Shown in pieces: positions 1 to 25,242 of a stretch of 64,000 nt of DNA. The notes under the pieces were generated by a model. The model did no database searches, was not told the DNA's origin, and saw only the letters and a program-made list of their open reading frames with translations. The number at the start of each line of letters is the position of its first letter. Position 1 is the stretch's first letter. The position numbers and the translations under genes are program-made. The stretch is from an uncultured Lentimicrobiaceae bacterium. GTDB lineage: Bacteria; Bacteroidota; Bacteroidia; Bacteroidales; SKPS01. Location: the NCBI GenBank assembly GCA_964652685.1, contig CAZZBS010000013.1, positions 2,933-66,932 of the forward strand. The letters run 5' to 3'.

Positions 1-2391
1 GTGCAATAAGTCATTAAAATATTTTGACTTTGTGTTTTTTAAATCAAAAACATTCATTTTTACAAAATCAAAAAGTGGTTTAGGGTTTACATCAAGTTTG
101 TACGACAAATTTTCAAAAACACTTTCGCTACCAACAGAATAACCATTTATTGCCCTACTTGTTGACAAGCAATTCAGATCTATACTTCCAAAGAGTAGTA
201 AATCCAGTTGCTTTGAATTTACCTTCAAATATTCTTTCTTGTTGAAGAAAGGAGATTCACCGACAACGCTTTTCACTTCCTGTAATTCTTTTGAATTGAA
301 ATTGTATTGCTTTCTGATTTCAAGTTCAATTTTTGATTCTAAGAAAAGCCGTTGATAATCGTTTTCAATATCTTCAATAATTAACCTTTCAAGAAACAAA
401 TCAAGGTTTTTGATTGCCGAATAATTGAAGTGTTTAAACTCAAAGTTTGGTAATTTCTTTTGCAGATATTTTTCTTTCAACTCTAGGCATTCTTTACTTT
501 TCTCTGCAATGAACTTTGAATCCAAAATATTTTGAGCGACAGGAATTTTAGAAATGTAGCCAGCACTGATTGTAAACTTAGGATTGATAAGTTTCAAAAG
601 GAAAGTTGCAATCCTTGAATTCAGAAAAGCAAGGTGAGCATACTTATCACCTTTTAAAACCTGAATGCCTGGACCTGATGCAATAAAAACTTGATTCTCT
701 TTCAGCACTCTGACATTTAAGCCCAAAGTTCCAGTATCACTGTAAACGAGTTGTGTTGTTGGTATTTTATCAATGTTCCTTAATGCACTTCCCTTATTTG
801 CTTTTATGATTTCTGCATTTTCACCCCAATGCACTTTGTAATAATTCAAGCCAGCCCATTTGCTGAAACCACCGCCTTTGCTAACCAATTTCCAATCGGG
901 GCTTCCGTTTACTTCCCAAGCAAATTTTACAAACTCAGTATTATTTCCTGTTGAAGTTCCTTGCATCGGATTTGCAAACTCAGAGTAAAGTTGAAGCTCT
1001 TGAATGTTTTCAAAACGATGTTCTAATTGATAGTTGAATTCAAGGTGACTGTTTTTCAAAAACTGATTTTGGTTCAACTCAAAAGTCAGTTCAGTAGAAA
1101 TATTTTTATTTGTTACCAAACTTATTTTCTCTGCAATATTTTTGAATTTCAAATTGTAAAACCTTGTAGTTTTTATTGCAGAGTTTCCAATTACACATAA
1201 AGCAACATTTGTTTTCTCTCCGTTAATATCTTCAAAAGCATTGCTTCCTAAATCAATGCACTCTTTCATTGTTTGCTTTGCTAAAAATATTTTTCTGAAA
1301 TCTTTGAGTGAAGATAAATACATCCAGTTGTTTTGCGACACAACACCCAATACATCTTTCTCATTCATCAACTGAATAGTACGTTGAATGAATGACGCGC
1401 ACAAATCACCTTTACTTTCGGGATAGTTTGCAAGCAAATAATTTTTCAGTGAAGTGTCCATATCCCGTTTGCCCATAAATGGAGGATTGGTTACAAATAC
1501 TTTTATTTTTTTTTCTTTATCGAGCTTTTCTAATTCAGTTTTAAAAGTTGCTCTGCCAATTGCATTTGATGTAACGTGAGGATTTATGAAACCCAATTTG
1601 TCATTTACAACTCCACCAAAAATTTTAATGGGAGTTGATTTGCATGGAACTGCAAATCCGCAAGCTTTGACAAACAATGACAGTGAGGCAATTTTAGAAA
1701 GATTTGAATCCAAATCATAACCGACAATTGAACTATTCAAAATCGTGTCAACAATCTTTTGGCTTGTCCAATTCAGTTTTGACCTTTTGTAAAGGTTGTA
1801 AAGGTGTTCAAAAGAATAATTCAGGAAATTACCACCACCTGAAGCAGAATCAATAACAACAATTTTTTGAATATCGGATTTATCAAAGCCTGACAATGAT
1901 TCATTAACTAAATATTTCACCATGTATTTATCAGTAAAAAACTGAGTGGTAAAAAGTAAATCTGAATCTTCAATTTTTGCATTGTCTTTTCCGATTCTTT
2001 TGAATGCAGATTTCTCTAAATCCTTTTTTAAGAATTGGTAAGACCAAGAAATAATATCATCAATATCATCATCTATTTTTTCAAATGCAACTTTCAATTT
2101 TTCAAAAACAGAAGAAAGCAGTTCAGTTTGAAGTTGAGATTCTATTACAAGAAAAATTTCAAACAGTTCTGGAAATCTTTGTTTAACAAGTTGGATTTCT
2201 GTTTTGAATTCAGAATGATAATCAGCAAAAGAGATTTTCACTTTGCCAGCATTGATTTGCTTATTTCTCAAAGTGAAAGTTGCAATTAAAACAGAAAAAA
2301 AGATGCTCAAGTCCTGCACAGGAATTTTCTTTTCCATCGGACTTAAACTTCCAATGAAGTATGCAATAAGACTTTTGATCTTCTGTTTCAC
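1..2391 (-). CDS. pglX: PglX/BrxX-like N6-adenine DNA methyltransferase, 3'-truncated by the window edge (797 codons visible; not in the ORF track)
   Basis: I translated the minus frame by hand: GTG at 2391, no stop down to position 1. It has PglX-type motifs in order: ISWSYQF, TTQFFTDKYMVKYLVNESL, motif I DSASGGGNFL (1831-1851), motif IV NPPFMG (NPPF at 1477-1488), YPESKGDLCASFIQR, QNNWMYLSS, DLGSNAFEDINGE, QGTSTGNN, KGGGFSKWAG. Confidence 0.8.
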   Translation of the reverse strand, partial: MKQKIKSLIAYFIGSLSPMEKKIPVQDLSIFFSVLIATFTLRNKQINAGKVKISFADYHSEFKTEIQLVKQRFPELFEIFLVIESQLQTELLSSVFEKLKVAFEKIDDDIDDIISWSYQFLKKDLEKSAFKRIGKDNAKIEDSDLLFTTQFFTDKYMVKYLVNESLSGFDKSDIQKIVVIDSASGGGNFLNYSFEHLYNLYKRSKLNWTSQKIVDTILNSSIVGYDLDSNLSKIASLSLFVKACGFAVPCKSTPIKIFGGVVNDKLGFINPHVTSNAIGRATFKTELEKLDKEKKIKVFVTNPPFMGKRDMDTSLKNYLLANYPESKGDLCASFIQRTIQLMNEKDVLGVVSQNNWMYLSSLKDFRKIFLAKQTMKECIDLGSNAFEDINGEKTNVALCVIGNSAIKTTRFYNLKFKNIAEKISLVTNKNISTELTFELNQNQFLKNSHLEFNYQLEHRFENIQELQLYSEFANPMQGTSTGNNTEFVKFAWEVNGSPDWKLVSKGGGFSKWAGLNYYKVHWGENAEIIKANKGSALRNIDKIPTTQLVYSDTGTLGLNVRVLKENQVFIASGPGIQVLKGDKYAHLAFLNSRIATFLLKLINPKFTISAGYISKIPVAQNILDSKFIAEKSKECLELKEKYLQKKLPNFEFKHFNYSAIKNLDLFLERLIIEDIENDYQRLFLESKIELEIRKQYNFNSKELQEVKSVVGESPFFNKKEYLKVNSKQLDLLLFGSIDLNCLSTSRAINGYSVGSESVFENLSYKLDVNPKPLFDFVKMNVFDLKNTKSKYFNDLLH

Positions 2392-2393
2392 AA

Positions 2394-2714
2394 TTATTTC
2401 TCCTTTGATTTTTTAGCGTAAATAGTTAATTGTTCATTGACAAGTTGAATCGCATCGTAAGTAGTTTTGTTTACACCATACTCTTTCAAAATCTTTTCGG
2501 CAGTATGCTTTACTTTCAAACTTGCTTCTGACACTTTGTAAAACTTGGCTAATCGTTTTAACTGTTCACTTGTAGGTAATCGTTCTCCTCTTTCAATTTT
2601 ACTGAGCATCGGAGAATCAATATCAGTCCCTTTTGACACCTGATGAAGTGTTTCTTCTCTTTGTTTTCTTAACTCTCTTAGATATTGGCCTAATTCTGAC
2701 TTAAATTTATTCAT
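2394..2714 (-). CDS. XRE-family helix-turn-helix transcriptional regulator
   Basis: LGQYLRELRK...TLHQVSKGTDIDSPMLSKIERGERLP is a classic XRE HTH. ATG 2714 is preferred over the TTG at 2747 because it follows a -7 promoter box. Its stop is 2 nt before the MTase start. Confidence 0.85.
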   Translation of the reverse strand: MNKFKSELGQYLRELRKQREETLHQVSKGTDIDSPMLSKIERGERLPTSEQLKRLAKFYKVSEASLKVKHTAEKILKEYGVNKTTYDAIQLVNEQLTIYAKKSKEK

Positions 2715-2718
2715 ATTG

Positions 2719-2748
2719 CAAAAATACGACTTGTCAATATTTGACAAA
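2719..2748 (-). promoter_or_regulatory. Bacteroidota sigma-A promoter (TTTG..18 nt..TATTTTTG) overlapped by a perfect palindrome TTGTCAA-N3-TTGACAA, a candidate XRE operator
   Basis: Plus strand CAAAAATA at 2719-2726 reads as TAnnTTTG on the minus strand, 4 nt before ATG 2714. The inverted repeat is at 2731-2737 and 2741-2747. Confidence 0.6.
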
Positions 2749-2799
2749 AATATACTGTTTTGTTTTATTATTTCTATTTATCAGGAAAAAGTTTTCAAC

Positions 2800-2925
2800 A
2801 ATTTTATAATTTAGCCAACGCATTTGCAAGCACATTGCCAAAGCCCTACGAGCCAACGCTTCAACCAAAGCTTTGTCAAAGAGCTTGCAAAGCCAACGCA
2901 CCAAGAAAAATTGTTTTATAAAATT
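2800..2925. repeat. Three AGCCAACGC direct repeats bracketed by a 10-bp inverted repeat
   Basis: AGCCAACGC at 2813, 2851 and 2891. AATTTTATAA at 2800-2809 pairs with TTATAAAATT at 2916-2925. Confidence 0.6.
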
Positions 2926-3050
2926 TGCCGACACTTAAAAAAATAAAAAACGCTGACACACAAGCCGACCCAGACAGAGAAGTAGAATGTGAAAATGACA
3001 CGAAAACTGAAAAACGACAATGGCTTACAAGACTGGAAGACAGAACACTA

Positions 3051-3179
3051 GGCGGTAACAGGCGGTATATTTTATTGCCGGGAAAGTGCGTGTTTCAGTA
3101 TTTCTTCATCTAATAAACTTTCATGTATCTTGACAGGTAAGTGCTTCGAAATCGGCAACAAAAACATACCGCCAATCCG
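3051..3179 (+). mobile_element. attC-like (integron cassette recombination site-like) imperfect hairpin whose right core lacks the TT of GTT
   Basis: GGCGGTAAC (R''-like) is followed by the arms GGCGGTAT 3061-3068/ATACCGCC 3166-3173 and TTGCCG 3075-3080/CGGCAA 3153-3158. It ends AATCCG|AT where GTT would be expected. Confidence 0.5.
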
Positions 3180-3358
3180 ATATCCTGTGCACCTTCGATG
3201 GCAAGCATTTCTATAAGGGAAGATATGCCAACACTTCTGACATTCTGTACACTTATGATGGTAAGCACCTGTACCGGGGCAGGTATGAAAACAGCAGCGA
3301 CATATTGTTGACCGTTACGGGTGCCATACCCGTATGCTTGTTTCTTGTGGTTATGTGA
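3176..3358 (+). pseudogene. 3' remnant of a 20-aa tandem-repeat protein gene; 5' part missing at the island junction
   Basis: Reads SDILCTFDGKHFYKGRYANT-SDILYTYDGKHLYRGRYENS-SDILLTVTGAIPVCLFLVVM*, with no start codon or signal peptide. Same architecture as the intact 24802-25242 protein. Confidence 0.7.
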
Positions 3359-3367
3359 GATCAACCG

Positions 3368-3703
3368 TTAGTACATCATATGCTTTTTATTCTGGTTCCG
3401 CCATCCTGCCTGTGATTCATACTCCACAAAGTAGATTTTCAGGTCGGCTTGGCTTTCGTAATCCACGAAGTAGATTTTTTTCTTTGCCTGGCTCGCATAA
3501 TCAACGAAATACCATTTGCCATTGTTCTGACCTGCCTGACTTTGGAATTTCACCTTGTACACCTTCAGGTCACACTAGCTTTCATATTGCACCACAAACA
3601 CTTTCACATCCGCCTGACTCTGGTAATCCACCGTGTACACCTTCTGTGCTTTGGTGGCGGTAATGGTGAACAGCAGTACCGGTAAAAGAAGCATCGGTTT
3701 CAT
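3368..3703 (-). pseudogene. DUF6150-like secreted 13-aa repeat protein interrupted by an in-frame TAG
   Basis: ORFs 3575..3811 and 3368..3562 share a frame and read ...VFVVQYES*CDLKVYKVKFQSQAG.... The other repeats have YESQAD, so the TAG at 3575-3577 replaces a Gln codon. Signal peptide starts at ATG 3703. Confidence 0.75.
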
Positions 3704-3953
3704 GGTGGAAGCGGATTGATGTGCTTCAAAGGTAAGCATTTTTTGGTGTAATGGATTCAGTGTACCATCTTTCATACTTTTTACCTTTCTAACAGAAATA
3801 TATACAGACATATAGAATTAGTCTTTGCTGACAGCCAGCCCGCTGATGTCAGATGGGACTCCGTCAGGAGTAATAACCCCTCTTTCAGCAATAAAGCTTA
3901 CCTTTGTGCTCACTATAGTTCATAGAGATTCAACCATCATAAAAGATATCCAA

Positions 3954-4442
3954 ATGACAACTTCTGTTATCACTGAGCAGGAAATATTTGACATACAGCA
4001 GGCATGGGGAGAAGGTGTTGTAAAAATCGGAAAGGTTTATGCTGAAAATGGCGATTACAAATCAACTGCTGTCGAATTCATTAATGTATTTTACAATTAT
4101 CAGGAAAGTAGTGTTTTGTTTAAGCCGACGCTTGTGTCGGAGAAGCAATTTCGAACTGAGTTTGACGGAGCGTTGTCCTATTTTATTAGTGGGGATGAAC
4201 ATTACCCCGAAGACCATGGGTTTGCCATAAAACCCTGGAGTAAGGTCCGCTGGGAAAATATTGGAATAAGAAGCATTGGCAATATGGCTGTTGCAATGGG
4301 CAACTATTATTTCACACCTGCAAAGGAAGGGGATGATGTGAAAGCAGAATATTCATTTGCATACACGAAAAACAGGGAAGGCAAATTAAAAATTATTCTG
4401 CATGACTCACATTTGCCCTATAAGCCTGTAGAAAAACATTGA
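3954..4442 (+). CDS. COG4337-like (iota-class, SnoaL/NTF2-like fold) carbonic anhydrase candidate
   Basis: AWGEGVVKIG, VLFKPTL, GALSYF, YPEDHGFAIKPW, AMGNYYF, and C-terminal LHDSHLPY (family typically LHHSSLPY). ATG 3954 chosen as the start. Confidence 0.65.
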   Translation: MTTSVITEQEIFDIQQAWGEGVVKIGKVYAENGDYKSTAVEFINVFYNYQESSVLFKPTLVSEKQFRTEFDGALSYFISGDEHYPEDHGFAIKPWSKVRWENIGIRSIGNMAVAMGNYYFTPAKEGDDVKAEYSFAYTKNREGKLKIILHDSHLPYKPVEKH

Positions 4443-24801: not shown

Positions 24802-25242
24802 CTATTCCAGGATATAGATCATTATGGCAACCGGGAGTTTGCCTTCAATATTCAACAGAATCTTACCCGAACTATATTCACCTTGTCGGATATACTGACC
24901 GTCAAAGTTATACAGAATCTTTCCGGAATTATATTGCCCCTGCCTGATGTATTTCCCGTCCCAATTGTACAGTATCTTGCCCGATTTATAAGCACTCTGC
25001 CTGAAATACTGGCCGTCCCAGTTATACAGGATGGTGCCTGAAGGATACTGTCCTCTTTTGATAAAAGTTCCGTCCCAATTGATCAGGACCTTCCCTGAAG
25101 GATATTGCCCTTGCCGGAGGTATACCCCATCCCAGTTGTAAAGGATTTTCCCGGATGCATATTCACCCTGCCTGACCAGGGTCTGCCCTTGGGCGTTTAT
25201 CATGGTGACTATGATGAAGGAAAGAGTAATGAACGTCTTCAT
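24802..25242 (-). CDS. Secreted 19-aa tandem-repeat protein of unknown function
   Basis: Signal peptide, then about 5.5 copies of RQGQYxSGKILYNWDGxY[IL], ending GKLPVAIMIYILE. Confidence 0.75.
   Translation of the reverse strand: MKTFITLSFIIVTMINAQGQTLVRQGEYASGKILYNWDGVYLRQGQYPSGKVLINWDGTFIKRGQYPSGTILYNWDGQYFRQSAYKSGKILYNWDGKYIRQGQYNSGKILYNFDGQYIRQGEYSSGKILLNIEGKLPVAIMIYILE

Follow-up and report, generated by a model that had tools for sequence, protein, structure and literature searches.

Classical integron integrases insert cassettes at genomic 5'-GWT-3' sites, where they cut after the G, and excision outside the insertion point can alter the chromosome (Loot et al., bioRxiv 10.1101/2022.09.11.507474). 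For the Bacteroidetes, IntegronFinder surveys list only In0 elements and one complete integron, in Salinibacter. The locus described here lies at the start of a stretch of 64,000 nucleotides (the window), positions 2,933 to 66,932 of contig CAZZBS010000013.1 (C13), from the metagenome-assembled genome (MAG) of an uncultured Lentimicrobiaceae bacterium of the order Bacteroidales (GCA_964652685.1; bioreactor, 97% complete; G000 below, where G, C and L numbers denote genomes, contigs and loci). It comprises a restriction-modification (R-M) module, a conserved non-coding element (module A) and a hairpin (module B), followed by the remnant of a beta-flower gene. The hairpin proves to be a true recombination site of the integron style, at the end of an R-M gene cassette of 7 kb, and its family marks a little-known integron-like cassette system of Bacteroidales and other Bacteroidota. 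In the window, this cassette is a stranded and damaged orphan: there is no recombinase, the 5' end is lost, the nuclease gene is split, and two methyltransferases are left. The reading as a whole, in which an attC-like site ends a large R-M cassette of this system, orphaned here and joined by a recombinase to a GWT-type site, is considered rather probable.

The attC-like site and its right joint

Module B is an imperfect palindrome whose last base is the conserved G at 3179; the next base already belongs to the start-less gene fragment (Table 1). The left box, AGGCGGTAAC, occupies 3050-3059. A long imperfect stem, in which a single bulged base is seen, pairs 3061-3080 with 3153-3173: GGCGGTAT (3061-3068) faces ATACCGCC (3166-3173), and TTGCCG (3075-3080) faces CGGCAA (3153-3158). 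The 3' spacer AATCC then leads to the crossover G. Folded as single-stranded DNA, the two strands give z-values of -2.6 and -2.85 relative to shuffled sequences. An Rfam scan of window positions 2400-4000 returned no relevant match and no family over the module B region.

The right joint reads CCG|ATATCC at 3179/3180, whereas GTT stands at this place in 81 of the 94 aligned copies of the element. The conserved block of the window is intact through G3179, as in the closest copies. The limit towards the partner is ambiguous over 3176-3180, as TCCG fits the site and the gene fragment alike. The right breakpoint falls at the canonical crossover, with a G|AT that fits the 5'-GWT-3' secondary-site consensus of classical integrases. 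Such a G|AT joint is found at three solo or terminal sites of the genus, including the window, G006:C1:718310 and G000:C39. Further exceptions to GTT among the 94 copies include one site with G|AA and three with the end TCAGAMTGTCTAA of an insertion sequence (IS).

This IS end is joined at or beside the crossover G of an attC-like site in three genomes (L032, at about position 1950 of G006:C20; L182; L190). The fusions recall the attC-targeting IS1111-attC elements of classical integrons.

Past the joint, the frame from 3176/3180 reads SDILCTFDGKHFYKGRY.. and contains no start codon, and an in-frame TGA (3131-3133) lies inside the hairpin. A full-length paralogue of the beta-flower gene is encoded 21 kb away (window 24820-25176), and a PF21786 search of the whole assembly did not find the 5' half of the gene. 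The joint is confirmed not to be an artefact of the MAG: Logan contigs from both the source run and an independent metagenome, of a landfill, contain positions 3150-4300 without differences. The initial annotation of this DNA, made from the letters alone, had proposed an attC-like hairpin, a joint running from it into a gene deprived of its 5' half, a fit to the secondary-site motif and a crossover that could be placed on either side of a few shared bases. All of this is borne out here, and the misassembly near 3175 that it had named as a danger is not seen.

In the 64-kb window, a single site is matched by the covariance model of the family (R1, see below), and none is matched in the first 12 kb of C9, the contig that carries the missing part of the island. 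The genome as a whole contains one strong site and two decayed solo sites, and no array. The decayed sites, scoring about 43 bits each (C39:17308-17446, minus strand; C36:4538-4674, plus strand), sit in ordinary chromosomal surroundings, and one of them reads G|ATCAAA past its crossover G.

Table 1. Coordinates of the features at the left end of the window
Feature	Position	Strand	Observation
Methyltransferase 1, 876 aa	1-2391, last 79 codons at C13:2693-2932	-	Pfam Eco57I 70 bits, MmeI_Mtase 32 bits
XRE/helix-turn-helix (HTH) controller-type regulator	2394-2747	-	HTH_31 and HTH_3, E about 1e-11
Module A, 3' copy of a conserved non-coding element	2806-2970	+	Further copies in many genomes of the order
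Spacer separating module A from the site, part of the cassette tail	2971-3049	+	Last 40 nt near-identical in six other genomes
attC-like recombination site (module B)	3050-3179	+	Covariance model R1, 139.8 bits
5'-truncated 6-fold beta-flower gene remnant	3180-3358	+	PF21786 profile 29-78 of 125, E = 1.8e-14

The site family and the associated recombinase in Bacteroidales

Many genomes of the order contain further copies of the non-coding stretch 2800-3180, which divides into module A (about 2806-2970) and module B (about 3050-3187). Nineteen copies of module B, aligned over about 139 nt, gave the covariance model R1 (139 positions; the family site measures ~137 nt). The alignment extends from a left box ..YAAC over a long stem to a right end CCG TTR.., with compensatory changes in 11 of the 14 stem pairs. 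In 40 further independent copies, taken from 36 genomes, 97.7% of the stem cells are paired; none of 500 shuffles was as good, and no slid register approaches this pairing. The imperfect palindrome, the ..TAAC and G|TT.. cores, the covarying stems and the prevalent GTT together identify an attC-type site. The model matches 204 of the 301 genomes and 156 of the 208 genera of the order Bacteroidales, and the initial annotation was right to look for further copies of the hairpin. A full-text literature search found no description of this site family. The idea that module B is the end of an IS or transposon, raised by copies at contig ends, was dropped after the arrays, the covariation and the complementarity rule described below.

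The sites form arrays. The complete 3.97-Mb Bacteroidales genome G158 holds at least 98 of them, and about 85 same-strand sites lie within roughly 275 kb (C1:3.68-3.96 Mb; L070-L072). Throughout a 20-kb sample of this region, a single co-oriented open reading frame (ORF) ends a few nucleotides 5' of each site. The sampled cassettes are 0.6-1.4 kb in size, one contains a HEPN/nucleotidyltransferase-like pair, and IS copies are interspersed. The size of the array is comparable to that of the Vibrio superintegron; the record ends 10 kb past the last site, and the head recombinase was not located.

Cassettes and sites are, moreover, matched to each other. The seven nucleotides after GTT are complementary to the left box of the site that lies downstream in the same cassette: as reverse complements, they agree at a mean of 5.2 of 7 positions (p = 1.7e-9), compared to 3.0 when the upstream site is taken and 2.4 with unrelated sites. 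At least six of the seven positions agree in 16 of 23 cassettes. The cutting of a circular cassette at G|TT would explain this complementarity; a terminator or a small RNA would not.

Next to the arrays of G020, G035, G038 and G013 lies the gene of a tyrosine recombinase, 354-371 residues long. Co-oriented arrays were recorded in G020, G035, G038 and G158, and not in the window's genome. The protein scores 186-202 bits, in two pieces, with the integron integrase model TIGR02249 (cut-off 265), 207-211 bits with NF040815 (XerA / integron integrase; cut-off 220) and 156-188 bits with the XerC and XerD models (cut-off about 330). Aligned with the true IntI of G030, it is devoid of about 40 residues of the catalytic domain and carries about 85 extra residues at the N-terminus. 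An IntI-specific domain together with a TIGR02249 score above cut-off was found in none of G000, G020, G038 and G013. By these comparisons, the recombinase is best described as an Xer/IntI-intermediate lacking the IntI insert. Recombinase and sites occur together: among 34 genomes that were searched for both and gave a clear recombinase call (two borderline genomes were left out), at least two sites are present in all 18 with the recombinase versus 5 of the 16 without it (Fisher p = 1.5e-5).

Restriction-modification cargo and the cassette chassis

The cargo consists, in this order, of a nuclease (plus strand), methyltransferase 2 (819 aa), methyltransferase 1 and an XRE controller (all three on the minus strand). 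Both methyltransferases are adenine methyltransferases of the Eco57I/MmeI type (TIGR02987-like, 76 bits), and the nuclease matches RE_NgoFVII / PLDc_2. With methyltransferases, nuclease and HTH controller in one module, the cargo is predicted to be a complete, controlled type II R-M system, which is probably IIS-like. The controller gene, which heads the reversed methyltransferase operon, can be read as 117 aa from a TTG or as 106 aa from an ATG at 2714. It has control-protein and HTH matches in PADLOC and holds the same position in all related modules. The gene order is kept, and methyltransferase 1 has the same 876 aa, in all five related loci for which ORFs were listed. Module DNA is found in about 20 MAGs, at 72-89% nucleotide identity, labelled Flavobacteriales, Chitinophagales, Sphingobacteriia, Cytophagales, Bacteroidales and others. 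The GC content over window positions 1-2800 is 28-34%, compared to about 44-48% for the contigs, in agreement with the AT-rich block noted at the outset.

The initial annotation had described this block as an XRE gene plus a PglX-like methyltransferase on the minus strand. Genes and strand stand, whereas the likeness to PglX is partial: the alignment with PglX models (238-281 bits) is limited to the centre of methyltransferase 1, and BREX-1 PglX reaches 281 bits for a cut-off of 500. A BREX system was therefore rejected on this score and on the neighbours, namely an HTH protein, another methyltransferase and a nuclease of the PLD family; no PglZ, BrxC or BrxL homologue was seen among the genes of the island.

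In two independent assemblies, L088 and L091, the same four-gene module lies exactly between two same-strand B sites, forming cassettes of 7301 and 7266 nt. The XRE-methyltransferase part is reversed as in the window, and the complementarity with the downstream left box is 6/7 in both. Judged by this arrangement, the R-M module is cassette cargo, and the earlier proposal of a multi-gene methyltransferase unit moving as a cassette is upheld.

A module with 75% identity was also noticed on a 126-kb contig (L093, JBDIVL010000005.1) of a MAG with the label Candidatus Brocadiaceae (Planctomycetota); a transfer between phyla or an error of binning would explain it. An exact-protein look-up of methyltransferase 2 returned only a 5.7-kb Logan contig of the source run.

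The nuclease gene of the window cassette is interrupted by an IS. Contig C13 begins 2932 nt left of the window, and nucleotides 1-54 of the contig belong to the end of a high-copy IS of 1585 nt. The convergent ORF that ends at C13:303 encodes the C-terminal part of a PLD-family nuclease of 410 aa (RE_NgoFVII / PLDc_2), residues 1-332 of which are encoded at C9:1045-47. Between the two halves, AGTAATT (7 bp) is duplicated on either side of the IS (C9:1-47, C13:1-54). The position of the halves on the two contigs and the AGTAATT at both IS sides give the order C9 (reversed), IS, C13.

The IS has a depth of 293 compared to about 29, and five further contig ends show the same IS end. In two landfill metagenomes, there seem to be contigs with the nuclease gene uninterrupted by the IS.

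From the left box of the window site, the cassette is expected to start with G|TTACCGCC. Six sister cassettes in other genomes do start in this way; after about 170 nt follow a 5' copy of module A, the cargo and a 3' copy of module A, and the tail is 82-89% identical to window 2822-3179. Their cargo varies: a type II methyltransferase with an HNH-like protein, two Mokosh-like helicases, PDC-M60, a NACHT protein with a RelA/SpoT-like protein, a type II R-M system with an XRE gene and, in one case recognized by eye only, thioredoxin-like, ArsR-like and transporter-like genes. With such a range of cargo, multi-gene defence cassettes are normal for this system. In the window, the core of module A covers about 2834-2883 (CACATTGCCAAAGCC..CAAAGCTTTGTCAAAGAG) and is followed by an extension.

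The ~52-nt core is rich in GCCAAC and CAAAGC motifs and contains the inverted repeat TTTGCAAGC / GCTTGCAAA. The 5' and 3' copies represent two subtypes, which as direct repeats bracket the cargo in the chassis cassettes (L203-L208).

A bolder proposal, which is put forward tentatively and is doubtful at present, is a two-level gene capture in Bacteroidales. At the first level, the Xer/IntI-intermediate, which has no IntI domain, would move whole cassettes with the G|WT chemistry and secondary-site preference of classical integrases. At the second, a chassis of about 750 nt, with two direct ~52-nt A cores as a second recombination site, would offer an exchange slot for multi-gene defence systems. 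The window would then be a decayed product of both levels.

Origin of the locus and comparison with known systems

The left end of the island is found on C9. To the left of the nuclease start, the 5' A copy is reduced to its 3' half; beyond it lie three direct repeats of GGGGTCAAYATSCYCCGG, a GIY-YIG gene and tRNA-Ala(GGC). The window cassette thus starts inside its 5' A copy and misses about 200 nt of its 5' end, including TTACCGCC. Since the left end has neither G|TT nor this start, at least two events are needed to explain the island. The region 3' of the tRNA-Ala differs in every genome of the genus, and synteny is not conserved; the tRNA-Ala/GIY-YIG locus looks like an integration hotspot.

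At positions 1150-1700 of this contig (L100), the three direct repeats correspond to the 3' end of the 88-aa GIY-YIG gene beside the tRNA-Ala(GGC). In G001, the 3' end of the tRNA-Ala is duplicated. On the other side of the joint, next to the beta-flower fragment, a DUF6150 gene (PF19647, E = 3e-24; window 3368-3811, minus strand) contains a TAG in frame at 3572-3574, and the codon after it is altered; its orthologue in the sister species G002 reads ..YESQADLKVY.. without a stop. The window copy is probably a pseudogene or a sequence error.

For the preferred explanation, an Xer/IntI-like recombinase, acting in an ancestor or in trans, would have joined the folded site to a secondary site of the GWT type. 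The target may have lain in a beta-flower gene that was already defective or dispensable. The right joint could represent an insertion whose left side was later lost or, alternatively, a deletion from the site into the neighbouring DNA. The truncation on the left, beside the hotspot, and the IS insertion would be separate events. What the site is, that the module is a cassette, the IS in the nuclease gene and the sequences of both junctions are shown directly; the order of events and the part played by the recombinase are inferred.

Several observations weigh against this explanation. A matching recombinase was not found in the 97% complete G000, in which the best match is Xer-like and reaches 78 bits, so that the event is not attributable to an enzyme there. 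In the left flank of the island, the start G|TTACCGCC was not found, and the left end is not G|TT. The sister species G002 contains the same beta-flower fragment beside DUF6150, truncated at least as far, without module B; Pfam recognizes this fragment only from KGRY onward. No empty site was found, either in the tRNA-Ala flank within the genus or in the DUF6150 neighbourhood within the family, where the beta-flower fragment occurs in G002 only. Lastly, the joint shares four nucleotides with both partners (3176-3179).

A longer G002 gene upstream of the G000 breakpoint was also considered; the frameshifted resemblance, seen by eye, is weak and was not used as evidence. The upstream flank of the G002 copy, searched against G000, gave no empty site or other gene half.

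The shared nucleotides are what an illegitimate, microhomology-mediated deletion at TCCG would leave. No site-specific recombinase would then be involved, and the ending at the crossover base would be a coincidence. Such a deletion is unlikely, yet it survives best among the alternatives: the breakpoint on the left of the island is plainly not site-specific, and G000 has no recombinase gene. However, the chance of a deletion ending within these four nucleotides is small. Furthermore, the sites at G006:C1:718310 and G000:C39 also break right after the G and continue with AT, and the conserved block of the window is preserved up to that G just as in its closest relatives.

Quite improbable is the model of the initial annotation, by which a single cassette was inserted into an intact host gene by recombination between attC and a secondary site. 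The right joint at the canonical crossover, reading G|AT, and the behaviour of the module as a cassette in other genomes are in its favour. Against it stands the far end on C9, where tRNA-Ala, GIY-YIG gene, repeats and a truncated start are found instead of beta-flower sequence or a G|TTACCGCC; the 5' half of the repeat gene and the G|TT core that had been predicted left of position 1 are both missing, and the assembly holds no such gene half elsewhere. The fragment is already truncated in the cassette-less sister species, and the disruption of the host gene by the cassette is accordingly not upheld. Neither a matching recombinase in this genome nor an empty site in its relatives, both of which the same model had led one to look for, was found. 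No reciprocal left junction, with the target joined to a TT.. cassette start, was seen, and the cassette is not shown to have entered a working gene cleanly.

Very improbable is a chimeric assembly that passes through the high-copy repeats A and B, with the R-M island and the joint of module B to the beta-flower gene coming from different cassettes or organisms. It is true that modules A and B are 20-30x deeper than their flanks in metagenomes (module A has a depth of 459-497 compared to about 20, an abundance equal to that of the attC-like site), that the Logan graph breaks at 2842/2873, and that the island has a depth of 28.8 in the source run while the host side has 20.8. However, exact unitigs tile 2873-4300 (2873-2949, 2920-3079, 3050-3169 and 3150-4300) at depths of 15-21. 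The depths of island and host track each other in three samples (28.8/20.8 in the source run, 3.7/4.4 and 4.8/4.6), and the order R-M, A, B is the same in the independent assemblies L088 and L091. Finally, if module B were a terminator, a small RNA, a REP-like repeat or another structured 3' element, its place directly 3' of ORFs and its strongly conserved loop would fit, but this reading is hardly credible, as it would predict neither post-GTT bases that match the left box of the next downstream site, nor about 85 co-oriented copies, nor the link to one recombinase family, nor IS ends at one fixed position, and no Rfam family matches the region.

The cargo can be compared to type IIS-like R-M systems with methylases of the Alw26I/Eco31I/Esp3I type and nucleases of the NgoFVII/BfiI type, with which it shares the HTH controller, two methyltransferases and a PLD-family nuclease. 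Unlike the named systems, all its scores are below the equivalog cut-offs, and its nuclease gene is interrupted by an IS. The resemblance to BREX is confined to the central part of methyltransferase 1, which aligns with PglX; the neighbours are otherwise a second methyltransferase and a nuclease.

As for the locus itself, it looks like one of the single attC sites lacking an integrase (SALIN), or an insertion into attG: the site stands alone with its cargo, the genome has no integrase, and the G|AT joint fits GWT. It differs in that the 5' end of the cassette is not intact, so that a clean attC x attG insertion is not demonstrable, and in its enzyme family. The joint suggests that the secondary-site rule of classical integrases may also hold for this family. 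The locus illustrates the fate of such a cassette after loss of the recombinase.

The system as a whole appears to work like a sedentary chromosomal integron, of which the Vibrio cholerae superintegron, with VCR sites of about 125 nt, is the example. Common to both are imperfect palindromes of ~130 nt with AAC and GTT boxes, crossover after the G, box complementarity cassette by cassette, and long arrays in which the cassettes share one orientation, mostly contain one gene each and include toxin-antitoxin and defence cargo. The array is headed by a tyrosine recombinase, which in G020 is divergent to the cassettes. In contrast, the Bacteroidales recombinase scores below the IntI cut-off, has no IntI insertion and carries about 85 additional N-terminal residues. 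The internal loop of the site between box and stem is asymmetric (1-2 nt versus 4-5 nt), the site sequence is conserved across families of one order, and some cassettes are multi-gene, 3.5-7 kb long and built on a conserved non-coding chassis. Because the defining integrase test failed, the system is not filed as a classical integron. According to genome surveys made with the standard tool, integrons are almost absent from Bacteroidetes; the one site family described here is present in two thirds of 301 Bacteroidales genomes. If the system works as its sequence logic implies, structure-specific cassette recombination needs no IntI-specific domain, and cassettes can serve to move defence systems of several genes (3.5-7 kb) in Bacteroidota of anaerobic digesters, sediments and other environments.

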